A stretch of 64,000 nucleotides of DNA from Candidatus Kapaibacterium sp. (GCA_938031175.1 CALHGZ010000010.1:83508-147507), one strand, 5' to 3'. Shown: positions 7,774 through 53,937, numbered from the stretch's first letter. A program made the numbers and translations. Notes: generated by a model from the sequence alone, not told the origin.

Positions 7774-9057
7774 TTATAAAGTTGATTTGTGAATTTGATT
7801 ATTATTTATAACATATTTTGGCTTCCCTTTTAAAACGTATCCATTAAATGGAGTATTAAGAGATTTAGAAAGAAAATTATTTTTATCAACAGTCCATTCC
7901 TCATTTGGATCAAAAATTGAAATATTAGCATTTACCCCCTTTTGAATTTTTATATCAGGAAGACCAAGAATCCTTCTTGGATTTACAGACATTTTCATAA
8001 TCAATTCTTGGAGTGATAAAATCCCTTTATGAACTAACCTATCCAGTGATAAAGCTAAAGCGGTTTCAAGACCAATTATACCATTCGGAGCAGACTCAAA
8101 TTCAACATCTTTTTCATGAAGTGCATGCGGAGCGTGATCAGTAGCAATACAATCTATTGTTCCATCGCTTAATCCTTCTAAGATGGCATCAATATCTCTT
8201 TGTCTTCTTAATGGGGGACTCATTTTGTAATTAGTATCATAAGATTCAAGTAGAGAATCGGTAAGTGTGAAATGATGAGGTGTTACTTCGCAAGTTACTC
8301 TAAGTCCACGTTTTTTTGCATCACGAACTAAACGAACAGCACCGTTTGTACTTATGTGTGAGACATGATAACGTCTTCTACCACAATATTCAGACAACAT
8401 TATATCACGTGCTATGATAATTTCCTCTGCAATGTAAGGAAAACCTTTCAAACCTAATTTATCTGATAAGGCTCCTTCATTCATAGCAAAGTTATGAGTT
8501 AATGTGATATCCTCACAATGTTGACTAACCAACAAATCTTTTGTTGCTGCATAATCAAAAATAATTCTCATAACATCCGAGCGTTGAACGCAATTACCAT
8601 CATCGGTAAACATCAAAGCACCTGAATTATATAAATCCATCATTGGTGCTATATGTTTGCCCTCTAAATTGTTAGTTAATGCTGCAGAAGGATATACATC
8701 AACAAGCAGATTTTTGGATTTTTGTTTAATGTATTCAAGAACAACAGGATTATCAATTACAGGTTTTGTATTGGGCATGCATAGAACTCCAGTAAACCCC
8801 CCATTTGCTGCTGCTGAAGAGCCTGATTTAATATCTTCTTTATAACTAAATCCTGGTTCTCTTAAATGAACATGCATATCAAATAAACCAGGCGAACAAA
8901 CCCAATTAGATGCCTCTATCAATTCTGTATCATTATCCCAGTTTGGTTCTGATAAATCACAATGCTCAATAATCCCATTTTTAATCCATAAATTAACTTT
9001 ATTAGTTATGTTTACTGCTGGGTTAATTATTGTAATATTTAAAAATCCTATATTCAT
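7774..9057 (-). CDS. pyrC: Dihydroorotase (type I)
   Basis: DMHVHLREPG, MPNTKP, HCED, HVSHIST, EVTPHH, IATDHAPH motifs. Confidence 0.95.
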   Translation of the reverse strand: MNIGFLNITIINPAVNITNKVNLWIKNGIIEHCDLSEPNWDNDTELIEASNWVCSPGLFDMHVHLREPGFSYKEDIKSGSSAAANGGFTGVLCMPNTKPVIDNPVVLEYIKQKSKNLLVDVYPSAALTNNLEGKHIAPMMDLYNSGALMFTDDGNCVQRSDVMRIIFDYAATKDLLVSQHCEDITLTHNFAMNEGALSDKLGLKGFPYIAEEIIIARDIMLSEYCGRRRYHVSHISTNGAVRLVRDAKKRGLRVTCEVTPHHFTLTDSLLESYDTNYKMSPPLRRQRDIDAILEGLSDGTIDCIATDHAPHALHEKDVEFESAPNGIIGLETALALSLDRLVHKGILSLQELIMKMSVNPRRILGLPDIKIQKGVNANISIFDPNEEWTVDKNNFLSKSLNTPFNGYVLKGKPKYVINNNQIHKSTL

Positions 9058-9152
9058 AATTACCTCAATATTTTGTTATTAAATGCAAATTAATTAGATT
9101 TTGACTAAGAAAAAAATGACTTATACGTTTATTTTGACTAAATTAGATTGAT

Positions 9153-9160
9153 TAAATTTG
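9153..9160 (+). promoter_or_regulatory. Bacteroidota-type -7 element upstream of IgGFc-binding gene
   Basis: TAAATTTG, 37 nt before the TTG start; GGAG SD at about 9188. Confidence 0.45.
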
Positions 9161-9197
9161 AACTTATATTTTTTTTAAATCTATTAGGGAGTAAAAA

Positions 9198-10508
9198 TTG
9201 AAAAAACTAATTTTATCTATTTTTGTCTCTTACAATATTTTAATCTTCACATTATTCGCTGCTTTTACTGACTCTGGTACTGAATTTTGGTTTTGTTTTA
9301 ACCAAAATTATATGAATAATCCTGAATATGTTCAAAACCTTCAATTGAAAGTAATAATCGTACCACTTCAGGACACAAAAATTTTTTTGACTGAATTTAG
9401 AACAGGTAAAATAACTGAATATTTAGTTAAAAAGGATAGCATGTTGGTGATTGAATTAGATAAGGAGAATCAAATTACAAAATATGAAGAGCCTTTAAAA
9501 CATTCCTTCAGATTGAAAAGTGAAAAACCAATAGTCGTATGGGCAACAAGTGAAATACCGAATTCTGCAGATTCCTACACTGTATTACCATTAGAAATGT
9601 TAGGTAAGGATTATAACATAATGTCATATTACAATCGAATGGCATTTCTTCTTTTTGGTCAAATGACAGTTTTAGCAACTGAAGATGACACAGAAGTTAC
9701 AATCATTCCAACAACACTAACTGGTGGCGGTAAACCTATGTTTCGTCCATTAGAAATTAAGCTAAATCAAGGCGAGACATATTCAATCTTTTCAATTGTT
9801 CCAGCGGAAGAAATGGAAGGAATGCCACAACAAGAATTGAGTGGTACGATAGTTAAATCAAATAAAAATATTGCAGTATTTTCTGGACATCAATGTGGTT
9901 TTGTGCCGAGGGAAACTCTTGCTTGCGATTATTTTATTGAACAAATACTACCGATAAAATTTTGGGGGAATGAATATTTTCTTGGTTCAATTCAAAAACG
10001 TACAAAATTTACTTATCGCATTCTCACGACAGAAAATGGAATTGATATTCGCAAAAATTCAAAATGGGTGGGCAATATAAATGCTTTTCAAGTGTTCGAT
10101 GATGAAATAAAAGGTGATTATGTACATATTGAAACTTCATCACCAACATTAGTTATGCAATATACTCATGGATTTATGGATATTGATTCTATTGGTGACC
10201 CAACTATGATAACAATACGCCCTGTTAACCATTATCAAAAAAAATATACATTAGCAACCCCTTTTGACAAAGAATGGTTACATTTTGTAAATATTTATAT
10301 CCCTACATCTTCTATTGATAAGTTATTTTGGAATGGGCAAAAAGTTGATAAAAATATTTTTAAGAAAGTTCCTGATACTAAATATTCAGTAGGTAGTCTA
10401 CAATTAAATTATGGTGTTCATCATCTCGAATGTGATGAACCCTTTGGTGTTACAAGCTATGGTCATAGCAATAAGAAAGATGAGCTTAGCTCGTATGGGC
10501 ATAGATAA
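9198..10508 (+). CDS. Secreted IgGFc-binding N-terminal domain protein (stand-alone)
   Basis: Signal peptide; GTEFWFCF, DSYTVLP..LGKDY, VLATEDDTEV, SNKNIAVFSGHQC, CDYFIEQILP..WG, GDP, C-terminal SYG. Confidence 0.8.
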   Translation: MKKLILSIFVSYNILIFTLFAAFTDSGTEFWFCFNQNYMNNPEYVQNLQLKVIIVPLQDTKIFLTEFRTGKITEYLVKKDSMLVIELDKENQITKYEEPLKHSFRLKSEKPIVVWATSEIPNSADSYTVLPLEMLGKDYNIMSYYNRMAFLLFGQMTVLATEDDTEVTIIPTTLTGGGKPMFRPLEIKLNQGETYSIFSIVPAEEMEGMPQQELSGTIVKSNKNIAVFSGHQCGFVPRETLACDYFIEQILPIKFWGNEYFLGSIQKRTKFTYRILTTENGIDIRKNSKWVGNINAFQVFDDEIKGDYVHIETSSPTLVMQYTHGFMDIDSIGDPTMITIRPVNHYQKKYTLATPFDKEWLHFVNIYIPTSSIDKLFWNGQKVDKNIFKKVPDTKYSVGSLQLNYGVHHLECDEPFGVTSYGHSNKKDELSSYGHR

Positions 10509-13181: not shown

Positions 13182-15805
13182 TGAAGGTATTGATAAATAT
13201 TGAATTTTTTCTACAAATTACCTTCTTATTATATTTCACACAATATTTTTACTGCTTTAGCCAAGAGATTCAAGAAATAGATACTAAAAATTCTCTTAAA
13301 GATACATTATTATTGACTGAATCCAAAAGAAGTGGTATTGATACAATAGTATTTTATCGTGCTACCGATAGCATTATATTTGATATTGAACAAAAAATAA
13401 TGATTTTAAGAGGCAGTTCATCTATTGAAATGAAAAATCAGAAGTTGAGTGCTGAACTTATCGAGCTTGATTTTGAAAGGTCAATTCTAAAAGCTGAAGG
13501 AATCAGAGACTCAAATAATAAACTAATTGGAATACCTCATTTTACAGAAGAAGGTGAAGAATATTATGGGAAACACATACTTTACAATTTCAGTACAAAT
13601 AGAGGTACAATCACATTCGGTGAAACGGAATTAGGGGAAGGTTTTTACTTTGGCTCAAAAATCAAACGCATTTCTGAAAATGAGCTATTTGTGCAGAATG
13701 GTTATTATACTACCTGTGATGCTGGTCATCCACATTTCTATTTTGGTTCTCCTAAAATGAAGGTTGCTTTGAGGGATAGAATATTTATAGATCCAATAAT
13801 TTTTTATATAGAGGACATGCCAATTTTTGGAGTGCCTTTTGGCTTATTTTTCCCGAGTAAAAGTGGTAGACAATCAGGTATAATAGTACCTTCATTTTTT
13901 TTCTCACAAAACAGAGGTGTTGTTTTAAATGAATTAGGAATATATTTAGCTTTGAGCGACTATTATGACACTAAATTTTCCATGGATTTTTTTTCAAAAG
14001 GTGGTTTTATTCTCAAAAATTATACACAGTGGCACCTTGTCAATAAATTCTCAGGTAATGCACGTATTGAGTGGGGACGAACGCGACTCTCACCAGACCA
14101 GGAATTTGAACAAAGATATAGTATAGGTCTATCACATAATCATCAAATCTCCCCTTTTACAAAATTTGATGCAAGTCTAGACTTCCGATCTCAAGATTAT
14201 AACAGAAATACCAGTTTTAATATTTTTGAAACAACGCAACAAAATATCAGTTCCAATGCATCTTATTCAACAAGATTTGAAGATGGTTCGAGTTTTTCTA
14301 TTTCATTCCAAAGGGACCAAAATATTATTACAGATGAATATACACAGACTTTACCAAGATTGAGTTATATTATTCCAAATTTGTACCCATTAAGAAATTT
14401 AGTTTCAACTACTAATTGGATGCGAGACATAACATTCAGTTATAATACATCATTCCGAAGAGATGAGCAATACAGAAGAATAATACGAAGCATTGAAGAA
14501 ATAAAGGATACAAATTATCAAAAAACTTTTAAAGCATTAATAACCCACTCGCCTGTTTTATCAATCTCCCCTAAATTTGGTTACTTTACTGTACAACCAT
14601 CAGTTAGTTTTTCAGCAAATAACTATTTTCGGAAATTAACAAGAAAGTTTAATCCTGAGGATTCCTCATTAATTGATGAATTACAAGATGGTTTTTTTAC
14701 TGAATATAATTATTCTTTTAATCTATCACTTCAGACAACATTATATGGAATAGTTGATGATAGAAAACCACTGTTTTGGATTTTAAAGCCATCATCAATA
14801 GGAATAAAAGCACTACGCCATATGTGGCAACCGAGATTAACTTTATCCTATACTCCTGATCAATCCGACCCAAAATTTGGTTTCTATGGCAAATACTATG
14901 ACCTAAACCAGAATAGAGAAATAACCTATTCAAGATTCGAATACGATGGTGGTGGTATTGCATCAAGATTTCTTTCCCAAAGTTTATCCTATCGAGATAT
15001 GCACAGATTCGAAATAAAAAAACCAGGCATCGATACACTACCGGACAAGAATATAGAACTTTTCGAACTAACATTTGCCACTAATTATAACTTTGCAGCT
15101 GATTCGATTAGGTTTAGCAATCTAAATCTTACTTTACGCATACCTTCATTAGATGTAATTAATTTCAATTCACGAGCTAGCTTCACTCTTTACGACGAAG
15201 CCCCAGTAATAGATCCGAAAACCGGTTTACCAACAGATAATTACCAGCCAATAAACAAATTTTTATTCGAAACCGGTAAAGGACTTGCGAGAATGACCAC
15301 TTTTGGTATGGAATTATCTACTTCATTTAATTCAAAAGGACTTGGCAGTCAAACCACTCCCCTACATACCTCCAAAGACTCAATATCAATCGGAGAAAGA
15401 TTTTTAAAAAGAATTGAAGAAGAATACGAAGAAGCAGATATTTTTGGTGATAATACTCCAGGTTATACTCCTTTTAATATTCCTTGGAATTTATCATTTG
15501 CTTTGAGTTATTCTTATAACAGTCCTTCGATAAAAAGAATTGATCGAAACTTCAATTTAAGAATAACAGCCTCCTTCTATATCACCCCATCACTCAATGC
15601 AGATATTTCAACTCAATATGATTTAATTAATAAAGAATTTTTAGCACCATTAATAAATATACGCAAAGATTTACACTGCTGGTCTCTTAATTTTACTTGG
15701 TATCCGAGCGGATTTAATCAAGGTTTTTATCTTAAATTTGCTGCTAAATCATCTATGTTGAGCGATTTAAAATTCGAGCGACGTAGTAGTTACTTATATA
15801 GATAA
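13181..15805 (+). CDS. lptD: LPS-assembly protein LptD (Bacteroidota type)
   Basis: OstA-like jellyroll N-terminus, YTTCD...HFYF motif, long beta-barrel, C-terminal RKDLHCW. Confidence 0.88.
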   Translation: MKVLINIEFFLQITFLLYFTQYFYCFSQEIQEIDTKNSLKDTLLLTESKRSGIDTIVFYRATDSIIFDIEQKIMILRGSSSIEMKNQKLSAELIELDFERSILKAEGIRDSNNKLIGIPHFTEEGEEYYGKHILYNFSTNRGTITFGETELGEGFYFGSKIKRISENELFVQNGYYTTCDAGHPHFYFGSPKMKVALRDRIFIDPIIFYIEDMPIFGVPFGLFFPSKSGRQSGIIVPSFFFSQNRGVVLNELGIYLALSDYYDTKFSMDFFSKGGFILKNYTQWHLVNKFSGNARIEWGRTRLSPDQEFEQRYSIGLSHNHQISPFTKFDASLDFRSQDYNRNTSFNIFETTQQNISSNASYSTRFEDGSSFSISFQRDQNIITDEYTQTLPRLSYIIPNLYPLRNLVSTTNWMRDITFSYNTSFRRDEQYRRIIRSIEEIKDTNYQKTFKALITHSPVLSISPKFGYFTVQPSVSFSANNYFRKLTRKFNPEDSSLIDELQDGFFTEYNYSFNLSLQTTLYGIVDDRKPLFWILKPSSIGIKALRHMWQPRLTLSYTPDQSDPKFGFYGKYYDLNQNREITYSRFEYDGGGIASRFLSQSLSYRDMHRFEIKKPGIDTLPDKNIELFELTFATNYNFAADSIRFSNLNLTLRIPSLDVINFNSRASFTLYDEAPVIDPKTGLPTDNYQPINKFLFETGKGLARMTTFGMELSTSFNSKGLGSQTTPLHTSKDSISIGERFLKRIEEEYEEADIFGDNTPGYTPFNIPWNLSFALSYSYNSPSIKRIDRNFNLRITASFYITPSLNADISTQYDLINKEFLAPLINIRKDLHCWSLNFTWYPSGFNQGFYLKFAAKSSMLSDLKFERRSSYLYR

Positions 15806-15885
15806 TTCTAATAATTTTTAACAAAAATTTTGAAATATGAAAGGAAATTTTTAAATTTAATTATATATTAAATTTAAATGAAAAT

Positions 15886-16986
15886 ATGACTAATAAAATT
15901 CTCATAATTGAAGATGAATTAGCTATTCTCGAGAACTTAATCGAAATAATAACAACGTTTGGTTATGATGTAATAGCAGCTGATAATGGTAATGAAGGTA
16001 TAAAATTAGCCATTGAGAATGCACCAGACTTAATTATCTGCGATATTTTAATGCCTGGAATCAATGGTCTCGATGTATTAAAAAAATTACAGGAAAATGA
16101 AATTACAGCTTCGATTCCATTCATATTTTTAACAGCAAAAGCAGATAAACCATCAATTCGTTATGGTATGGAACTTGGTGCTGATGATTATTTGACTAAA
16201 CCATTCACTCCTAATCAGTTACAAAAAGCAATAGAAACACGACTCAGAAAAAAAGAGCAAACATTTGAAGCAATGAATAAAAAAATTGATATACTTAAAT
16301 CCTCATTAGCTACATCGCTCCCTCACGAATTTCGTACACCCTTAAATGGTATTTTGGCTTCTTCTGAATTTCTAATAAAATATTATGACAATTTACCTAT
16401 TGAGGATATTAAACAATTACATTTAAATATTCATAATTCAGCTTCAAGATTGCATAGGCATATAGTTAATTTCTTACTTTATTCAGAAATTAATATTCTC
16501 AAAAATCAAACCGATTTAGAAAAAAATGAGCAAAACTCGCCCCCTATGTATTTACCATCGGATATTGCCTATGCTGTGTTTTATAAATACGCTGTTATGA
16601 ATAATAGATATGAAGATTTACATTTTTTATCTAAGGGAAGCAATTACATTAATGTCAAACAGGAGCATTTTTATAAAATTTGTGAGGAATTAGCCGATAA
16701 CGCTTTTAAATTTTCTGAAAAAGGCACCCCAATAGAAGTCAGCCTTGATTCCAATAACAATAAATTAATAATGAAAATTAAAGATTTTGGCAGAGGTATG
16801 ACCTATAAGCAAATTAAAGAGATTAGTGCTTATACACAATTCGACAGAAACCTATACGAACAACAAGGTTTAGGCTTAGGTTTAGCCATTGTTATTAAAT
16901 TATGCAATTACTATGGTGGAGAATTTGCAATCAATAGCGTTCCTAATTCTTTCACTGAAATTGAAATTAAGTTCAAAACCATTTAA
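15886..16986 (+). CDS. Hybrid response regulator-histidine kinase (REC-HisKA-HATPase)
   Basis: ILIIEDE, ICDILMP, GADDYLTKP; H-box PHEFRTPLNGIL; DNAFKFS, DFGRGM, GLGLGL. Confidence 0.92.
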   Translation: MTNKILIIEDELAILENLIEIITTFGYDVIAADNGNEGIKLAIENAPDLIICDILMPGINGLDVLKKLQENEITASIPFIFLTAKADKPSIRYGMELGADDYLTKPFTPNQLQKAIETRLRKKEQTFEAMNKKIDILKSSLATSLPHEFRTPLNGILASSEFLIKYYDNLPIEDIKQLHLNIHNSASRLHRHIVNFLLYSEINILKNQTDLEKNEQNSPPMYLPSDIAYAVFYKYAVMNNRYEDLHFLSKGSNYINVKQEHFYKICEELADNAFKFSEKGTPIEVSLDSNNNKLIMKIKDFGRGMTYKQIKEISAYTQFDRNLYEQQGLGLGLAIVIKLCNYYGGEFAINSVPNSFTEIEIKFKTI

Positions 16987-44832: not shown

Positions 44833-46263
44833 TTAAAATGTGTACCCGGTTAATTTTTCCAAGAAAAATTGCTTCAAGTTATCAGCGTTGATTCTGATTT
44901 GATACATAGAATCTCTATCACGCACGGTTACTGTATTATCCTGTAAAGTTTGTCCATCAACAGTAATGCAATAAGGTGTACCTACTTCGTCTTGACGGCG
45001 GTAACGCCTACCTATTGCACCACTTGAATCATAACGGACACGTATAATTTTTTGTAAATCCAAAAATAATTTTTCTGCATATTCAGGCATACCCTCTTTA
45101 TTTACCAAAGGGAAAACCGCAGCAGTTATAGGTGCTATCAAAGGATGTAACCTAAGAACTACACGTTTTTCAATCTTACCATCTTCATTCTGAATATCCT
45201 CTTCATCATATGCATCGCATAAAAATGCCATAAATGAGCGTGTAACTCCTCCAGAAGTTTCAATAACATAAGGGATATATCTTTCGTTTGTAACAGCATC
45301 GAAATATTCAAGTTTTTTACCTGAAAATTGCTGATGATTACTTAAATCGAAATCAGTCCTTGAATGAATTCCTTCAATTTCTCCCCAACCAAATGGAAAT
45401 TCGTATTCAATATCGATGGCATAATTTGCATAGTGGGCTAATTTTTCATGCTTTTTAAAATTAAGACGCTCAGCTTTGATTCCGCAGTTAACGAACCATT
45501 TCATTCTTTCTTCTTTCCAATATTCGAACCATTCTATTTCGGTACCTGGTTTAATAAAATATTGCATCTCCATTTGTTCAAATTCTCTTGTTCGGAACAG
45601 AAAGTTTTTCGTGTTAATTTCATTGCGGAAAGCTTTACCAATTTGGGCTATACCGAAAGGTATTTTCTGTCTGCTACTATCTAATACATTTTTAAAATTT
45701 ACAAAAATTCCTTGTGCCGATTCTGGGCGTAAATATACAACACTTGATTGATCTTCAACAGGACCAATAAAAGTTTTAAACATTAGATTAAAATTCCGTA
45801 CCTCGGTCCAATCGCAAGTGCCGGATATAGGATCAGGTATTTTATAATCAATAATTATTTTATAATAATCAAGTGGTTCTTCTGCGGAGTTCAATTTAGT
45901 TTCAATTTCATAAGCCAAATCATTTTTCCCTTTTCTTTTAAGTGTATCAATGTAATCTTCAATTAGATTGTCAGCTCTATATCTTGCTTTACTTGTTTTA
46001 TTGTCAATCATTGGATCACTAAACTTTGATGTATGACCGCTTGCATCCCAGGTGCGTGGATGCATTAAAATTGAAGCATCAATTCCTTCAATATCCTTAC
46101 GATAAGTCATTGAACGCCACCATAATTCCTTAATGTTACGAAGCATTTCGACACCTAGCTGACCGAAATCCCAGCAACCATTAAGTCCGCCGTATATCTC
46201 CGATGATTGAAAAACAAATCCACGTCGTTTAGCTAATGATATTATTGTTTCTAATTTTACCAT
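44833..46263 (-). CDS. glyQS: Glycine--tRNA ligase (homodimeric type)
   Basis: KRRGF..SSEIYGG, YLRPESAQGIF, GKAFRNEI, FRTREFEQME, IGRRYRRQDEVGTP. Confidence 0.96.
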   Translation of the reverse strand: MVKLETIISLAKRRGFVFQSSEIYGGLNGCWDFGQLGVEMLRNIKELWWRSMTYRKDIEGIDASILMHPRTWDASGHTSKFSDPMIDNKTSKARYRADNLIEDYIDTLKRKGKNDLAYEIETKLNSAEEPLDYYKIIIDYKIPDPISGTCDWTEVRNFNLMFKTFIGPVEDQSSVVYLRPESAQGIFVNFKNVLDSSRQKIPFGIAQIGKAFRNEINTKNFLFRTREFEQMEMQYFIKPGTEIEWFEYWKEERMKWFVNCGIKAERLNFKKHEKLAHYANYAIDIEYEFPFGWGEIEGIHSRTDFDLSNHQQFSGKKLEYFDAVTNERYIPYVIETSGGVTRSFMAFLCDAYDEEDIQNEDGKIEKRVVLRLHPLIAPITAAVFPLVNKEGMPEYAEKLFLDLQKIIRVRYDSSGAIGRRYRRQDEVGTPYCITVDGQTLQDNTVTVRDRDSMYQIRINADNLKQFFLEKLTGYTF

Positions 46264-46475: not shown

Positions 46476-47114
46476 TCAATTTTGCTGCAATTTTGAAAAT
46501 TTCTTTATATCATTTGAATATTCAAACAAGATGTTTGATGCAATTAGATAAAAATGATTATCAGTAGCACCCAGTATTGTTTTTACAAAATCATTCATCC
46601 AACTTGTGAAATAAATCAATACAAAGTTTTTAAAAATACTCTGGTAATCAATCAATTGCCCGTTTTGATTGATTATAGCTTCATACTGCTTATATAAAAG
46701 ATATTCAATAAATTCCAATTCAGCTAAAATATGATCAGGTAGGTCTTTGAATTCATCATTCATCAAAAGACCTGCCCTCGCATATAGTTGCTCTACTTCA
46801 TTGGTAGATTCACCCATTAATTTGCCATTTTCCAAATAATGTGAGCCATATGGTACAGCCAATACATGATAGGGACCAATAAAAAGCCTCGAGTATTCAA
46901 TCAAAAGTTGATCTTTTTCTGAATTATTTAATAACTCATTCAATATTTGGGCATTGATTTTATATTTTTCAAATAACTTAGAATTAAGTAATCGTTCATA
47001 AATGATAGAGAAGCTTTTTTTATACTCTTCTAAATTTGATATCGGAGAAAAAATAATTTTAATAAATTTAGTTAAATCGTATAAAAAGCTAATTTTTTCT
47101 AATTCGTCATTCAT
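46476..47114 (-). CDS. arrD: TorD/DmsD family redox-enzyme maturation chaperone (ArrD)
   Basis: EYSRLFIG, PYGSHY, LPDHILAELEF motif; coupled to arrB by a TAATG overlap. Confidence 0.88.
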   Translation of the reverse strand: MNDELEKISFLYDLTKFIKIIFSPISNLEEYKKSFSIIYERLLNSKLFEKYKINAQILNELLNNSEKDQLLIEYSRLFIGPYHVLAVPYGSHYLENGKLMGESTNEVEQLYARAGLLMNDEFKDLPDHILAELEFIEYLLYKQYEAIINQNGQLIDYQSIFKNFVLIYFTSWMNDFVKTILGATDNHFYLIASNILFEYSNDIKKFSKLQQN

Positions 47115-47899
47115 TAGAGTTTACTTTTTGTAAATTCCCCGATATAATAAACATTTGGTTTGGTTCCCTCTTCAGAGTCGCCTAAAAATTCTCCTCTATT
47201 GTTCTTTAGACGTTTAAATGGATTATTTTTGATTAATTTGCTAACTTCACTTTCCTTATCATCAAAATCACCGAAAATTCTAGCACCAGCTGGACATGAA
47301 ACAACACAGAAGGGCTGTAAACCAATTCTTCTTCTGTGGTCGCATAATATGCATTTTTCAACTACATATTCTCTTCTGATCGGTTCATAATCGGGATGTT
47401 CATATAAATTAGCATTAGGTGGGATAGAACCTGTAATTTTTGATATTTCATTAGCAGAAGATGTACAATTTGCAATTACTTGTTTTCTATTTTTCCAGAA
47501 ATCATGAACATTCTCTGAATTATAACTGATCACACTATATTGAACATCTTCATTTTGCATACTTCGTACACTATATGGACAAGCATCCATACAACGGCGG
47601 CAACCGATACATCTTTCATCATTGTGTAGAGTAATACCTTCATTCGATTTGAACATGGCCTTTGGTTCCACAGGGCAAACTTCAACACATGGTGCGTTAG
47701 AACAGTGATTGCATAATACTGGCAAGAATTGATATTTTATATTTGGAAATGTTCCTTCGTAAGAAATATAATAATCAGCCCAATTAAATGTTTGTGAATT
47801 GGTACTTGTCTGAGTATTATTTTCAGCTTTGCAGGCAATTGCACAAGCACCGCAACCGGTGCATTTATTTAAATCAATTACCATTCCATATTGTGACAT
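47114..47899 (-). CDS. arrB: 4x[4Fe-4S] electron-transfer subunit of respiratory arsenate reductase (ArrB)
   Basis: CTGCGACAIAC, CNHCSNAPCVEVCP, CIGCRRCMDACP, CILC...CVVSCP; the long ArrB-type insert (ISYN..HDFWK...PN...Y..IR..VVEKC) between clusters; no signal peptide. Confidence 0.88.
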   Translation of the reverse strand: MSQYGMVIDLNKCTGCGACAIACKAENNTQTSTNSQTFNWADYYISYEGTFPNIKYQFLPVLCNHCSNAPCVEVCPVEPKAMFKSNEGITLHNDERCIGCRRCMDACPYSVRSMQNEDVQYSVISYNSENVHDFWKNRKQVIANCTSSANEISKITGSIPPNANLYEHPDYEPIRREYVVEKCILCDHRRRIGLQPFCVVSCPAGARIFGDFDDKESEVSKLIKNNPFKRLKNNRGEFLGDSEEGTKPNVYYIGEFTKSKL

Positions 47900-47924
47900 T
47901 TTAACCTCTTTATATATTTTACAA

Positions 47925-50789
47925 TTATTTACTTACGATAAATTTAAATGATTCACGGTAAAAACCATTTTCGATAACACCTAAGTATAAGCCATTTTCC
48001 AGCTCTGATGTATCAATTTTCAAAGTATGGTTACCAGTTGTCAAGAGATGATTATTTTTAAGAACAAGACTACCATTGACATTAAAGACTTTAAGCGTCA
48101 TATTAACATTTACATAAGTTGTTATGTTAACTGTGGTATATTCTCGTGCTGGATTTGGATACACGGAAGAAATATTTAAGCTCGGTTGCAATTTTTCAGA
48201 ATTTTTTTCTATACTTGTTGCGGGTTCAATTTTTACACCGAAAAATCCGCCATTTCGACAAGTTGATCCTGAAAAGCGCTCATATTCGTCAGGTATGATA
48301 TCATTATTATTACTACCACGTGGTATCCCATTATTAAAATCAAGTGATGCTATTGCACCATAATATTTATGTCCTTGGCCAAAGCATTTTGTAATTGTAC
48401 CTTCTCGAATTCCCTCCCATAATTTGACTTCTGCTATTATGCTACCCGTAGGTGATGTAATTCTAACTTTGTCACCATCATTTAAATTCAATTTTGCTGC
48501 ATCTTTATGATTAATTTTTACCACATCAGCCCAGGATTTATCACCGGGATCAACTTTTTTAAACTCATGGTACCATGTGATGTTTTGACTCCTACCTTCG
48601 CGATTAAATTTAGACTTGTAATCAATGAAGTAAAATGGATATTCCTTACTATCACCAATTCTTGGAGGTGGTTCATAGTGTGGAACAAAAGCTAATTCTC
48701 CTTGAGCTAAATAATTCGAAGCAATTAAGATATCGTCTATTGTGGTTTCGTGTTTATCAGCATGATCTTGTAATACTTTTTTCAAAGTTTCACTGTAAAA
48801 TTCAAATTTCTTAGTAATCGTACCAAAATTACCCCATAACTTTCTAAATTCATATTTTTTGGAAATAACAATTCCTTCTTCTTTGAATTTTTCCCAACCT
48901 CCTATAGTATCATAACTGGGTTTTGTTCTCATTTTTGTAACTATTTCAGCAAATTCAGTGGCATTAGTTGCTGATTGATTTGTTTCAGGATCTTTAATTT
49001 CATTGGTTAAATAATTATATAAATTGGGAAATCCCTTTTCATTTAACTTTTCCGCAATATTCCATACAAATTCATTTTCATCAGCTCGTACATCCCACAT
49101 TCTTTTTATTAGGGGTTGTTGTATTGAGAGAAAAGCATAAGTATTAGCAAAAGAATTAGATCCAGACCATTTCTCAGCGGATGGATGAGCAGCAGGTAAT
49201 ACTATATCGGCATAATGAGTCATTTCACTTGCATTAGTTGTTATATGAACTAAAAAAGGTATTTTAGCTAATACCTCGCTCCATCTTTGTCCCTGTGTAC
49301 CTGAATAATTAAAGTTACACCAGTAAGCTATACAAATTTTTATATCATAGGGATCATTTTTTAGTAGAGCGTTTGGAACGTTATTTGTAACTACAGCGGA
49401 ACCAGCTTTGCCTGAAGCTATTGCTGGAAAGTTTTTATAACCTCTTTGGTCAATTTTTTTCATCTTTACACCCGCTTTTGCAATATCATCCTGATAATTT
49501 GCTTCACTAGGGAAAGATGTCAAAGAAATCTTATTTGAACGGATTGGACCTCCCTCATTGTCAGTAGAACCGAGAAGTCCATTAAGTGCATGGATAGCCA
49601 TCGATGTATAAGCACCTCTTGGAGTCATTACTGCTCCTGGTCCGAGCCAAACAGACACTTTCGGTGCAGCTTGTCCCATTCCTCTTGCAATTCTAATGAT
49701 TTGTTCTTTGGGTATCAAAGTAATCTTCTCAGCCCATTCAGGTGTTTTATCTTTGAGTTCGAGGTTCCACCATTTTATTAATCCGTTAGTATGAACTTCA
49801 TTAAATACATCTTCATTTAGTTCCTGTCCTGCTATGAATTGATTTTGTCCATTTTTAAAATCACCTACAAATTCTTTGTTCCATAATCCCTCAGTCAATA
49901 TAACATGTGCAATTGCAGATGCCAATGCACCGTCTTCGCCTGGTTTAATGGGCAACCATTCATGTGATTTTGCTGCTGCTGAGCTAAATCGGGGGTCAAT
50001 GGTTACTAATGTTGCATTTTGACTTATATGGGAGATTTTATTTAGCATATTTGGTATTTGTCTATTTGAACTAAATGGGTCGGTACCCCAGAAAACAATG
50101 TATTTTGAGTTCATTAAATCGTAATCTCTATAACCCCAAAAACCTTCAGTGTAATAGGGTCCAAATTTCTCTGCTTCTGCACATATAGCACTGTGTGAAA
50201 TATTATTTGGAGAGCCAATAATTTTGGGAAAAATTGAGTAGAGTAAATCGGTATTTAAAGTGGAATATCTTCCACGTAAAAGCAAAAATTTATGTGGTTC
50301 ATTATTTTGGCGTAATTCAATTAATTTTTCAGCTATGGTATCTAATGCTTCATCCCAACTAATTGGCACAAAGTTTGGATTCTCATTTGGACCTTTTCGT
50401 GGATTAGTTCTTTTCATTGGCACTTTGACTCGGTCAGGATCATAAATTTCAAGTGTTAATAAATGTCCTTTAGGACAGACAAATCCATTATTAGACAAAG
50501 AACGTTGATTACCACGAACTTTGGTAGCTCTACCATTTTGAACAAAAATTTCAACAGCACACCAAGTGGTACATCCCTGACAAGTTGTCGGTATCCACTT
50601 ACCATTAATATCGAGTATTGCATCGTAATTACCTGTTTTAGCTTTGAATGCTTTTAAAACAGGCGGTGCTAATAAAGTTCCAGTCGCTAATATTGTGGAA
50701 TTTACTAAAAACTTCCTACGACTGGATGATTTTAGATCAGAATTTTTTATTTCTGAGTTTAATACTGAATTAGTTTTACTTTGAATCAT
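47925..50789 (-). CDS. arrA: Respiratory arsenate reductase catalytic subunit ArrA (Mo-bisPGD, [4Fe-4S]) fused to a C-terminal T9SS sorting domain
   Basis: Tat motif SRRKFL; CQGCTTWC..CPKG cluster; RGRY (ArrA) rather than GRGW (ArxA); SHSAICAEAEKFGPYY..G.WGY active-site loop; last ~98 aa contain YPNP, KVFNVNGSLV, IDTSELENGLYL, KFIVSK. Confidence 0.92.
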   Translation of the reverse strand: MIQSKTNSVLNSEIKNSDLKSSSRRKFLVNSTILATGTLLAPPVLKAFKAKTGNYDAILDINGKWIPTTCQGCTTWCAVEIFVQNGRATKVRGNQRSLSNNGFVCPKGHLLTLEIYDPDRVKVPMKRTNPRKGPNENPNFVPISWDEALDTIAEKLIELRQNNEPHKFLLLRGRYSTLNTDLLYSIFPKIIGSPNNISHSAICAEAEKFGPYYTEGFWGYRDYDLMNSKYIVFWGTDPFSSNRQIPNMLNKISHISQNATLVTIDPRFSSAAAKSHEWLPIKPGEDGALASAIAHVILTEGLWNKEFVGDFKNGQNQFIAGQELNEDVFNEVHTNGLIKWWNLELKDKTPEWAEKITLIPKEQIIRIARGMGQAAPKVSVWLGPGAVMTPRGAYTSMAIHALNGLLGSTDNEGGPIRSNKISLTSFPSEANYQDDIAKAGVKMKKIDQRGYKNFPAIASGKAGSAVVTNNVPNALLKNDPYDIKICIAYWCNFNYSGTQGQRWSEVLAKIPFLVHITTNASEMTHYADIVLPAAHPSAEKWSGSNSFANTYAFLSIQQPLIKRMWDVRADENEFVWNIAEKLNEKGFPNLYNYLTNEIKDPETNQSATNATEFAEIVTKMRTKPSYDTIGGWEKFKEEGIVISKKYEFRKLWGNFGTITKKFEFYSETLKKVLQDHADKHETTIDDILIASNYLAQGELAFVPHYEPPPRIGDSKEYPFYFIDYKSKFNREGRSQNITWYHEFKKVDPGDKSWADVVKINHKDAAKLNLNDGDKVRITSPTGSIIAEVKLWEGIREGTITKCFGQGHKYYGAIASLDFNNGIPRGSNNNDIIPDEYERFSGSTCRNGGFFGVKIEPATSIEKNSEKLQPSLNISSVYPNPAREYTTVNITTYVNVNMTLKVFNVNGSLVLKNNHLLTTGNHTLKIDTSELENGLYLGVIENGFYRESFKFIVSK

Positions 50790-51030: not shown

Positions 51031-53937
51031 ATGCAAGTTAAAAAGAGTGTTGAAAAAACAGATATTAGCTCATTTTCTGAGCTGAATCAAATTGTAATTG
51101 AAGGAGCACGCGAGCATAATCTGAAGAATATAAACGTTCGAATACCAAGAGACAAATTCATAGTTATTACTGGAGTTTCGGGTTCAGGTAAATCGAGTCT
51201 AGCTTTCGACACAATTTACGCGGAGGGACAACGACGCTATGTAGATTGCTTATCAGCTTATGCACGTCAGTATCTTGGAATATTGAAAAAAGCAGATGTA
51301 GATAAAATTGAAGGTTTATCACCATCAATATCCATCGATCAAAAATCTATAAGTCACAATCCTCGTTCTACTGTCGGAACAGTCACAGAAATTTATGACT
51401 ATATGCGTTTATTGTTTGCTAAAATAGGTATGCAGTATTGTATTGATTGTAATATTGCTGTAGAACAAAAATCTGTTGATACAATAGTAGATGAAATTCT
51501 AGAGCAATATTCTGGTAAACCAATACAGATATTATCACCTATCGTAAGAGGTAGAAAAGGTCATTATAAAGAATTGTTCAACCAGTTTTTAAAACTTGGT
51601 TTTACAAAGGTTAGAGTAGATGGCCAATTGCTTGACATTGTGCCCGATATGCAATTAAACAGATATCAAATCCATGATATCGAACTTATTATTGATCGTC
51701 TGACAGTGGATAAAAAACATATTCAGCGTATTACTGAATCAGTTGAACTAGCATTGCAAAAAAGTGAGGGAATCGTTATTATAAATACACATGGCAACAA
51801 TGGATTACCAAAAGACAAAACATTTTCAACTTTGAATTCATGTCCATCATGTGGTAAAGCATATGAAGCTCTTGCTCCTAATATGTTTTCTTTCAATTCA
51901 CCATACGGGGCTTGTAAAAAATGTGATGGATTAGGTGAAATTCAAAGTTTTGAACCAAATTTACTAATTCCAGACACTAATTTATCTATTGAAAACGGGG
52001 GTATAGCACCTTTGGGTAAATTCCGACCTAATTATTTATGGTCTTTGGTTGAGGCATACTGTATCAAGAGGGAAATTGATTTATCTAAACCTATCAAGGA
52101 ATTGAGTCAAGAAAAACTACATTCTCTACTTTATGGAGGTAATTCTGAAACAATTGATGTAAATTATCAATTCCAAACGGGAACAGTATCTAAATATAAA
52201 CAAACATTTAGTGGACTTATTGAAATTCTTAATCATCTATATGAAACAACCCCAAGCAAATCCAAAAAAAGAGAACTTGAAGAATTTATGTCAACCACTG
52301 TATGTAATGTATGTAATGGTGGGAGACTCAAACTTGAAAATCTAGCTGTAAAGATTTTAGATAAAAATATACATCAACTTTCTTTAATGGATATTAAGAC
52401 TTTACATTTATTTTTTTCTGCTCTACCGGAAAAACTTAACAAAAGAGATAGAATCATTGCAAATATGATCATAAAAGAAATAACTGAACGATTGCAATTT
52501 ATGTTGGATGTGGGTTTATCATATTTATCAATTAACCGTCCATCAAGAACACTATCAGGTGGAGAAGCTCAAAGAATTAGATTGGCTTCTCAAATCGGTT
52601 CAAAATTAGTTGGTATCACTTACATTTTAGATGAGCCAAGCATCGGCTTGCACCAGCACGACAATGGGAAATTAATTAGCTCACTTAAAACCCTCTCTGA
52701 AATGGGGAACACTGTAATTGTCGTAGAACACGACAAGCAAATGATGGAAAATGCTGATTACATTGTAGACATTGGTCCAGGTGCAGGTATTCACGGCGGG
52801 AAAATATTAATTTCTGCCTCAAAAGATGAAATTGAACACTTAAGTGAAAATGAAATTAGTAAATCCATAACAATTCAATATTTAAAAAAAATTAAAAACA
52901 TACCTATTCCGCCTCAACGAAGGCAGGGAAATGGTAAATTGTTAATTCTCGAAGGTGCCAGTGGTAATAATCTAAAAAATATTACCCTTAGATTACCTCT
53001 TGGAGTAATGATTTGTATTACAGGAATGAGTGGTTCTGGTAAGTCGTCTTTGATAAACGATACTTTATATCCAATATTAGCACGCCATTTTTACAAATCA
53101 AAACTCAAACCTTTACCCTATTCACAAATTACTGGTATCGAGTATATAGATAAAATTATTGAAATTGACCAAACTCCCATAGGACGAACCCCTCGTTCCA
53201 ATCCTGCAACATATACCGGGCTTTTTACGCTAATCCGTGATTTTTATACTTTACTTCCTGAATCAAAAATAAGAGGATACACTGCTGGAAGATTTTCTTT
53301 TAACGTCAAAGGTGGTAGATGTGAAGCATGCGAAGGTGCTGGGTTGAAAAAAATTGAAATGAATTTTCTACCGGAAATTTATGTTGAGTGTGATATATGC
53401 AATGGGAAAAGATACAATCGTGAAACACTTATGGTTAAATATAAAGGCAAATCGATCGCAGATGTACTGGATATGACAGTTGAAGAAGCTTTAGAGTTTT
53501 TCAAAGATATACCAAAAATAAAAAGGAAATTGAAAGTACTCAGTGATGTGGGGTTAAATTATTTAATACTTGGTCAGCAGGCACCAACTTTGTCTGGTGG
53601 AGAGGCTCAAAGGATTAAGTTAGCAACTGAACTTTCCAAAACGGCAACTGGTAAAACTTTGTACCTATTGGATGAGCCAACAACAGGTTTACATTTCGAA
53701 GATATTAGTCTTCTGCTAAAATTACTGAACAGATTAACTGACAAAGGCAATACAATTGTAATTATTGAACATAATATGGATATCATTAAATGTGCTGATT
53801 GGATTATAGACTTAGGCCCCGAAGGTGGTGACAGAGGTGGTTATATCATTGCTGAAGGTACACCGGAAGAGATTGTAAAAAACAAAAATAGCCTTACTGC
53901 TAAATATTTGGCAGAAGAGTTGAAAGCTAATAATTAA
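51031..53937 (+). CDS. uvrA: Excinuclease ABC subunit A
   Basis: [20 protein letters not shown], two zinc fingers, LSGGEAQRI twice, GMSGSGKS. Confidence 0.98.

Follow-up and report, generated by a model that had tools for sequence, protein, structure and literature searches.

An anchor-less arsenate reductase with a type IX secretion tag in Candidatus Kapaibacterium, and a candidate cytochrome route for its electron supply

The DNA analysed here is a stretch of 64,000 nucleotides from the metagenome-assembled genome of an uncultured bacterium, Candidatus Kapaibacterium sp. (GCA_938031175.1, CALHGZ010000010.1:83508-147507), hereafter the window. It carries an operon, arrA-arrB-arrD, for a respiratory arsenate reductase (Arr) that has no subunit for the oxidation of quinol. 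The catalytic subunit, ArrA, bears a twin-arginine translocation (Tat) signal at its N-terminus and a C-terminal sorting domain (CTD) for a secretion system of type IX (T9SS) at its other end. We propose, tentatively and with somewhat less than even confidence, that this is an anchor-less Arr exported by the T9SS and fed from menaquinol through unlinked cytochromes, for which a six-gene cluster on another contig of the assembly, C2, is the best candidate.

The region 46476-50789 is filled by three tightly packed minus-strand open reading frames (ORFs), encoding only ArrA, ArrB and ArrD (Table 1), with a gap of 25 nt between arrA and arrB and an overlap of 1 nt between arrB and arrD. A preliminary description of the window had placed these three genes alone between glyQS and uvrA, and had reported that the window encodes neither an NrfD-type protein nor a CxxCH protein and that ArrB lacks a signal peptide; ORF coordinates and family matches bear this out. 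No CxxCH motif was found in open frames of at least 30 aa over the entire 64-kb window. There is also no NrfD match (PF03916) on contig C10, from which the window comes; all matches of the genome to PF03916 and to NapC/NirT (PF03264) lie on other contigs. The first Cys motif of ArrB starts at residue 13, leaving no signal peptide. The view that electrons must come from unlinked genes, because the operon has no quinol-oxidising subunit, is supported.

By family assignment, the enzyme of the operon is an Arr-type arsenate reductase. ArrA scores 1074 bits against the NCBIfam ArrA model (under its strict equivalog cut-off of 1600), as compared with 257 bits for the runner-up, PhsA, and 951 bits against ArrA of Shewanella sp. 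ANA-3 (6CZ7_A), as compared with 162 bits against polysulfide reductase (Psr; 2VPW_A). It has the Pfam domains PF04879, PF00384 and PF01568, and in the HMMER alignment its LLRGRYS, ISHSAICAEAEK and FWGY segments align with the Shewanella residues. The RGRY motif, the Mo-ligand cysteine of HSxxC and the following Lys and Tyr, which we take to be the arsenate-site residues of 6CZ7, are all aligned between ArrA and 6CZ7_A. The N-terminal Fe-S cysteine motif, the Tat signal and the adjoining four-cluster ArrB are likewise as expected of Arr. ArrB matches the NCBIfam ArrB model with 252 bits and 6CZ7_B with 211 bits (alignment from residue 4), and its 16 Cys are arranged in four ferredoxin-type motifs, for four [4Fe-4S] clusters. 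The arrD product matches PF02613 (84.8 bits) and NCBIfam TorD (54.6 bits). Next to the operon there is neither arrRS nor an ArsR gene, in contrast to its relatives, and a scan of the operon for sigma-70 promoters and terminators gave no useful signal over shuffled expectation.

We surveyed 80 ArrA loci, one genome per species, by ORF calling and BLAST, and reconstructed a maximum-likelihood tree. Of these loci, about 40 comprise arrAB(D) and nothing more, about 17 place an NrfD-type ArrC immediately upstream, about 8 carry an 11-haem cytochrome in that position and about 14 are CTD-tagged; these arrangements track the clades of the tree. An arrAB(D) without anchor, at about half of the loci, is the commonest arrangement. 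The window operon falls in an Arr clade of the Fibrobacterota-Chlorobiota-Bacteroidota (FCB) group (Shimodaira-Hasegawa-like approximate likelihood ratio test, SH-aLRT, 98), no member of which has an ArrC or an adjacent NrfD. Clusters of arrAB without C were described in 2008 by Duval et al., according to whom "several different solutions" may link a two-subunit Arr to the quinone pool (PMC2500031). Shewanella offers one of them, its anchor-less ArrAB receiving electrons from CymA (PMC2762525, PMC2500031), just as the preliminary description had held. That description had also treated the missing route as unusual, which the survey contradicts: the missing anchor by itself is an ordinary, already described arrangement. 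As one part of the explanation to which our less than even confidence applies jointly, the window Arr would never have had a quinol-oxidising subunit of its own, as is the rule in its clade.

The loci with an 11-haem cytochrome (450-526 aa, directly upstream of arrA, ~10001 in most; L024, L027, L028, L029, L034, L039, L052 and L065) form one clade, from Nitrospirota, Victivallales, Kiritimatiellae and SAR324, which suggests a third, cytochrome-based mode of feeding Arr. Such a donor was rejected for the present genome, whose cytochromes give weak partial BLAST matches to it, with no full-length counterpart seen. Melioribacter roseus was also set aside as a published precedent, its arsenate-induced enzymes being Psr- and Ttr-type, not Arr.

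A cognate ArrC or NrfD encoded elsewhere would speak against the absence of an anchor, and we searched the whole genome for one. Four intact NrfD-family genes were found, each within its own complex by gene context, and a fifth copy is a pseudogene with stop codons (Table 1). The pseudogene is bordered by what is left of a B subunit on one side and of an A subunit on the other, a B-C-A order of the ttr type (tblastn). There is no orphan NrfD or NrfCD pair in the genome. A hidden ArrC or spare NrfD is thus ruled out. The genes of the DsrMKJOP-like cluster, which contains one of the intact copies, encode a membrane protein, a 540-aa protein, a trihaem protein, a Tat-signal Fe-S protein and the NrfD protein. 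The pseudogene belongs to a decayed ttrBCA-like operon with arsR and an Acr3 arsenite pump directly beside it, a neighbourhood that recalls the ttr-ars arrangement described in M. roseus.

In ArrA, the twin-arginine motif SSRRKFL occupies residues 22-28 (nt 50706-50726). The CTD matches PF18962 with 45.4 bits (cut-off 27) and TIGR04183 with 36 bits (cut-off 23), and stops 2 residues short of the protein end. It ranks ninth in strength among the 105 CTD matches of the genome, 99 of which are at the extreme C-terminus, and the genome encodes both the SprA translocon and TatC. The entry signal of ArrA is thus a twin-arginine signal and not a general secretory (Sec) signal, as in canonical T9SS cargo. 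T9SS cargo is described as Sec-dependent in recent work (PMC12618676), and our literature search found no report of Tat-dependent or respiratory T9SS cargo. The CTD-bearing cytochromes that the preliminary description had suggested did not materialise, since CxxCH is absent from all 105 CTD proteins. Three proteins of the genome combine a Tat motif with a CTD, ArrA and two more. One of these is a 257-aa protein with Rieske-type CxH...CxxH motifs, encoded downstream of two dihaem peroxidase/MauG-like genes (C5:113735-116651 for the whole group), and is apparently a second redox protein routed by Tat and then by the T9SS. The other, of 530 aa and with the Tat motif MDRRTFVKK, is encoded on the contig of the window but outside it (C10:7170-8762).

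Comparison with related loci reveals that the CTD is not confined to one subunit. It is carried by ArrA in the window operon and at L012-L014 and L016, and by ArrB at L017, L018, L038, L043, L045, L048, L049 and L080 (PF18962, 27-53 bits); L040 and L064, not included in the Pfam scan, have the same ArrB extension. At the B-tagged loci, which belong to Bacteroidota and Kapabacteria, ArrA is 833-838 aa long and has no CTD, and ArrB is ~100 aa longer and ends in Por_Secre_tail. These ArrB proteins begin directly with the first Fe-S motif, without a signal peptide, so that they could reach the periplasm only by riding on the Tat signal of ArrA. Inside the one FCB clade (SH-aLRT 98), the A-tagged enzymes and the B-tagged ones separate into sister clades, and at least 14 genomes, from two classes, have the CTD fixed on one or the other Arr subunit. 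Because the tag is fixed on either subunit, the T9SS cargo is probably the assembled and folded ArrAB dimer. Moreover, this placement argues that T9SS targeting of Arr is selected and not accidental. Two loci nested in the B-tagged clade, L041 and L050, have no CTD on either subunit, and have a second, much longer ArrA-like ORF (1185-1190 aa) beside arrABD.

Candidate electron-supply routes were sought by counting CxxCH motifs over all ORFs of the genome and by context scans. Four emerged: NrfH-NrfA on C9, the haem subunits of alternative complex III (ACIII), a pair of genes on C4, and the six-gene cluster on C2. NrfH, which is encoded beside NrfA and is the sole true NapC/NirT protein of the genome, scores 163.7 bits against a cut-off of 134.2. 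Both ACIII clusters include a pentahaem ActA, and the C4 pair encodes an ExtKL-like tetrahaem protein and a monohaem barrel. By its composition, the C2 cluster offers a membrane protein for quinol oxidation, haems that span the periplasm, a haem-porin of the outer membrane and a lipoprotein cytochrome of that same membrane (Table 1), and may be the supply route for Arr, for which we consider it the best candidate. The membrane protein, a fusion, matches PF01292 with 100 bits and the PhsC model with 179 bits, its NrfH-like domain scoring 44 bits. For the 412-aa protein of the cluster, the AlphaFold2 model (from a five-sequence alignment) has a mean predicted local distance difference test score (pLDDT) of 61, a predicted template-modelling score (pTM) of 0.61 and ~20 strands over residues 89-410, and it matches 16-strand porins of the OprP, OprO and OmpF type (Foldseek probability 1.0, template-modelling score about 0.5). 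On this model, its architecture is that of a Cyc2-type fused cytochrome-porin.

The C2 cluster tends to accompany CTD-tagged Arr in other genomes. We took as marker homologues of the C2 pentahaem cytochrome (E<=1e-30), and compared counts by Fisher tests that were not phylogenetically corrected. Of the 14 other CTD-Arr genomes, 10 have the marker and 2 more have fragments of it at contig ends. In the class background it occurs in 14 of 150 sampled genomes (9%; p=5e-7); only three genomes of this sample of 150 have ArrA, the present genome included. It is found in 1 of 7 Arr genomes without CTD. ArrA, the pentahaem and the C4 tetrahaem are all absent from the 16 sampled relatives of the same family or order. 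A search of the order of G006 with a chimeric ArrA-pentahaem query gave ArrA in 3 of 121 genomes (A-tagged in G002 and G003, B-tagged in G006), and the pentahaem in all 3 Arr-positive versus 11 of 118 Arr-negative genomes. The six genes stand in identical order in G002, G003, G005 and G006, and a reduced cluster of this type is found in the Bacteroidia G008, G011 and G014. At the Cyclobacteriaceae locus L049, arr itself is bordered by genes for an MtrC-like octahaem lipoprotein and for a homologue of the C2 pentahaem (30% identity over 384 aa, E 2e-38). An unlinked porin-cytochrome conduit of the predicted kind therefore exists in the genome and co-occurs with CTD-Arr elsewhere, as the preliminary description had anticipated. 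The C4 conduit was rejected as an Arr-specific partner, not being enriched (6/14 versus 35/150, p=0.12). At L049, a Cytophagales operon with ArrB-CTD, the genes at 8744-9889 and 14908-15996 encode an MtrC-like octahaem and a stalked hexahaem. At its sister L040 (8438-9969), the gene before arrA encodes a lipoprotein that combines an EB_dh haem-b domain with a cytochrome c domain.

In the mechanism that we tentatively favour, ArrD would mature ArrA, and ArrB would ride the Tat signal of ArrA into the periplasm, where the type A CTD would pass the folded ArrAB dimer to the T9SS for placement at or on the outer membrane. Menaquinol electrons would enter an unlinked cytochrome chain, with C2:336172-343298 as the best candidate. 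Here the fusion of a PhsC-like cytochrome b with an NrfH-like hexahaem would be the quinol dehydrogenase, in the role of Shewanella CymA; the membrane-tethered 13-haem cytochrome, the monohaem c and the Tat Rieske protein would bridge the periplasm; the Cyc2-like monohaem porin would provide passage across the outer membrane; and the MtrC-like lipoprotein pentahaem, on its collagen-like stalk, would give electrons to the Fe-S chain of ArrB. Proton-motive force would arise upstream and during the oxidation of quinol, Arr itself contributing none. Transfer from a cytochrome to ArrB is made plausible by the precedent of CymA (PMC2762525) and by the 11-haem gene upstream of arrA in Nitrospirota and Victivallales. 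If this mechanism holds more widely, arsenate respiration in Kapabacteria and other Bacteroidota would be extracellular, with export by Tat and then T9SS, the untagged subunit riding on the CTD of the other, and feeding at the surface by a Cyc2-like porin and a stalked MtrC-like cytochrome, both drawing on a cytochrome b-multihaem quinol dehydrogenase. This generalisation is possible, if rather doubtful.

Several points weigh against export and feeding through C2. Export by this route would require SprA to pass a Tat-delivered, cofactor-loaded dimer of ~130 kDa, and canonical T9SS cargo uses Sec signals (PMC12618676). The assembly lacks moaA, moaC and moeA, which bears on the supply of cofactor to ArrA. 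The Cyc2-like model is of only moderate confidence (pLDDT 61), and neither Cyc2-like protein is matched by any model of Pfam or NCBIfam. The C2 cluster is unlinked to arr in this genome and, with its Rieske protein and Cyc2-like porin, may be a module for Fe(II) oxidation. Two CTD-Arr genomes, G009 and G013, have no detectable pentahaem homologue, and the counts may be affected by shared ancestry and are affected by the incompleteness of metagenome-assembled genomes. The co-occurrence may also be ecological, if metal- and arsenic-rich anoxic habitats favour both traits. Finally, ~9% of genomes without Arr have the cluster as well; it is therefore not dedicated to Arr, which at most plugs into a general chain for extracellular electron transfer.

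The main rival is a periplasmic ArrAB, whose CTD is unused for export or serves only to tether it to PorV or to the outer membrane's inner face, and whose ArrB is reduced directly by a NapC/NirT-type dehydrogenase or by ACIII haem subunits. We consider it somewhat unlikely. The genome does provide candidate donors, namely an NrfH that exceeds its model cut-off, the NrfH-like domain of the cytochrome b-hexahaem fusion, and two ACIII clusters with pentahaem ActA; the proven donor of Shewanella, CymA, is itself of the NapC/NirT family, and Tat cargo may not be handled by a T9SS whose canonical cargo is Sec-dependent. However, NrfH is encoded beside NrfA, its usual dedicated complex partner, and periplasmic docking by a CTD is not known. 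A conserved CTD with high scores, which has become fixed on one subunit or the other across two classes and at least 14 genomes, would hardly be expected unless recognition by the T9SS were under selection. That same tag is difficult to square with docking at a membrane anchor, as would be required if an existing NrfD-type subunit, most plausibly PsrC, doubled as anchor for ArrAB. The ArrC proteins of other lineages do match PsrC best among the proteins of this genome (BLAST), and ArrC and PsrC are recognised relatives (PMC2500031). Nevertheless, PsrC comes from a complete psrABC that supplies its own B subunit, the genome contains neither an orphan NrfD nor an orphan NrfCD pair, its sole unattached NrfD is the pseudogene of the decayed ttrBCA-like operon, and no adjacent NrfD gene is found anywhere in the FCB Arr clade, so that we give this possibility hardly any credence.

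Alternatively, the enzyme might be exported without being the end of a quinol-fed chain, either by release in soluble form or at the surface to work with extracellular reductants, or by running in reverse as an arsenite oxidase, with electrons passing inward through the Cyc2-like porin, monohaem c and Rieske protein to a caa3 oxidase. Many type A CTD proteins of other Bacteroidota are released, the Cyc2-like and Rieske parts in C2 are typical of inward flow in iron oxidisers, and the genome has ACIII and cytochrome oxidase. The closest structural relative of the enzyme is, however, a reductase, and its motif is RGRY, which we take to be of the Arr and not the Arx type; we regard this reading as improbable. 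Still less probable is that the cassette was recently acquired or stranded and is non-functional for want of partners, regulators and cofactor synthesis. It would fit the lack of an adjoining arrRS or ArsR, which relatives have, the lack of moaA, moaC and moeA from a 97%-complete assembly, and the absence of Arr from the 16 sampled genomes of the same family or order. Against it, all three ORFs are intact with their catalytic and cluster residues conserved, arsR-acr3 is present elsewhere in the genome, and MoaC is absent as well from three relatives that keep an intact arr beside a TonB-receptor/ECF-like/MobA cluster, which points to another cofactor supply rather than decay.

This last cluster was noticed downstream of arr. 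At L013 and L014, arr is followed by moaA, moaC, moeA and mobA, genes for biosynthesis of the molybdenum cofactor (Moco), and a role of these downstream genes in ars resistance was ruled out. At L012:6411-10681, L017:14786-19019 and L018:14695-18939, a cluster of another kind follows, with an energy-coupling factor substrate-binding (ECF-S)-like membrane protein (PF09605), a second membrane protein, a TonB-dependent receptor, an NTPase (PF03266) and MobA. The present genome (G000) has the same cluster after psrABC, at C1:33462-37703. MoaC (PF01967) is absent in exactly the four cluster-bearing genomes (G000, G001, G005 and G006) and present in 12 of 12 others tested (p=5e-4), and tblastn found neither moaA nor moeA in G000. 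This pattern suggests that Moco or a precursor may be scavenged.

Table 1. Coordinates of the features discussed. Positions without prefix are those of the window; C numbers denote contigs of the same assembly and L numbers related Arr loci. Mo-bisPGD, molybdenum bis(pyranopterin guanine dinucleotide)
Feature	Position	Strand	Description
arrA	47925-50789	-	954 aa; catalytic Mo-bisPGD subunit, Arr-type respiratory arsenate reductase
Tat signal peptide of ArrA	50640-50789	-	residues 1-50, read from translation
Type A T9SS CTD of ArrA	47934-48164	-	residues 876-952, Por_Secre_tail
arrB	47114-47899	-	261 aa; four-cluster [4Fe-4S] electron-transfer subunit, without signal peptide
arrD	46476-47114	-	212 aa; TorD/NarJ-family chaperone for Tat proofreading and maturation
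glyQS	44833-46263	-	glycine-tRNA ligase; NF003211 654.8 bits, above cut-off; downstream operon boundary, housekeeping, unrelated
uvrA	51031-53937	+	NF001503 1400 bits, above cut-off; divergent upstream boundary, housekeeping, unrelated
ArrB-CTD gene	L017:12563-13651
ArrB-CTD gene	L018:12522-13613
ArrB-CTD gene	L038:5516-6592
ArrB-CTD gene	L043:8159-9235
ArrB-CTD gene	L045:11487-12563
ArrB-CTD gene	L048:12518-13591
ArrB-CTD gene	L080:5786-6862
ArrB-CTD gene	L049:12979-13683
C2 cluster	C2:336172-343298		six genes
C2 gene 1			lipoprotein pentahaem, collagen-like stalk, MtrC-domain match
C2 gene 2	C2:337380-338618		412-aa Cyc2-like protein; signal peptide, one N-terminal CxxCH, terminal aromatic residue
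C2 gene 3			Tat Rieske protein
C2 gene 4			monohaem c
C2 gene 5			13-haem cytochrome, C-terminal membrane helix, MtrC-domain match
C2 gene 6	C2:341076-343298		740-aa PhsC-like dihaem cytochrome b fused to NrfH-like hexahaem
NrfH	C9:194228-194824		NapC/NirT protein, beside NrfA
Operon with NrfD 1	C1:39680-43373		complete psrABC operon with MerR regulator, own B subunit
Cluster with NrfD 2	C9:103840-108858		DsrMKJOP-like five-gene cluster
NrfD 3	C8		ACIII plus cytochrome oxidase cluster
NrfD 4	C6		second ACIII-like cluster
NrfD 5	C9:234005-234702		pseudogene, stop codons
Decayed ttrBCA-like operon and its arsR-acr3 neighbours	C9:233338-235500 and C9:236093-237684		contains NrfD 5; arsR and Acr3 arsenite pump directly beside the operon
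SprA translocon	C7:176852-178201		2311-aa ORF
TatC	C1:26276-26911

Arsenate respiration mobilises arsenic into groundwater, and in current models the enzyme is periplasmic, so that only dissolved arsenate is respired. If the proposed mechanism is true, a surface ArrAB wired through a porin-cytochrome could attack arsenate sorbed on iron minerals, reducing the mineral-bound form directly and keeping arsenite out of the periplasm, and Bacteroidota and Kapabacteria would join the organisms to look for in arsenic-affected aquifers. The T9SS would then be shown to take a folded, non-covalent heterodimer delivered by Tat, and Arr would be the first respiratory enzyme exported by this system and the first Tat-to-T9SS cargo. 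A hidden ArrC is ruled out, and the missing route becomes a named, testable candidate of six genes.

Among known systems, the ArrAB of Shewanella sp. ANA-3 (6CZ7) with CymA is of the same family and has two subunits plus a chaperone and no membrane subunit, its donor being an unlinked membrane cytochrome of the NapC/NirT type. It is, however, periplasmic and without a sorting domain, whereas the window ArrA has a T9SS CTD, and in place of CymA the best candidate dehydrogenase here is the cytochrome b-hexahaem fusion of the six-gene cluster. The arrCAB operons of Bacillota, Gemmatimonadota, Rhodothermota and Phycisphaerae (see also Duval et al. 2008) share the catalytic and Fe-S subunits and the chaperone, but form a separate clade and encode, immediately upstream of arrA, a quinol-oxidising anchor of the NrfD type with about 304-339 aa, which the window clade lacks. 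Type A cargo of the T9SS, such as gingipains and the glycoside hydrolases of Flavobacterium, shares a PF18962/TIGR04183 domain at the extreme C-terminus, and the genome here has SprA and about 100 such cargos; in contrast, the entry signal here is Tat and not Sec, the predicted cargo is a cofactor-loaded heterodimer, and sister lineages tag the signal-less subunit.

On the side of the electron supply, the C2 protein shares with Cyc2 fused cytochrome-porins the signal peptide, a single N-terminal CxxCH and a porin-like barrel, a resemblance by architecture only, and characterised Cyc2 serves Fe(II) oxidation, not the feeding of a molybdoenzyme. As for the Mtr and Ext conduits, the Cyc2-like gene of C2 adjoins an MtrC-domain lipoprotein cytochrome, and the C4 neighbour resembles ExtKL. 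By analogy, the closest precedent for the proposed mechanism is the extracellular DMSO reductase DmsEFAB of S. oneidensis MR-1, in which a Mo and Fe-S dimer from the superfamily to which Arr belongs is carried over the outer membrane and fed there by a porin-cytochrome, with quinol oxidation of the CymA type at the inner membrane (PMC9048795). DmsEFAB is exported by the type II secretion system, with dmsEF in the same operon and a decahaem held within a 26-strand barrel of the MtrB type. In Candidatus Kapaibacterium, export would instead be by the T9SS and feeding by an unlinked, monohaem Cyc2-like porin with a lipoprotein pentahaem, at a location predicted from the genes alone.

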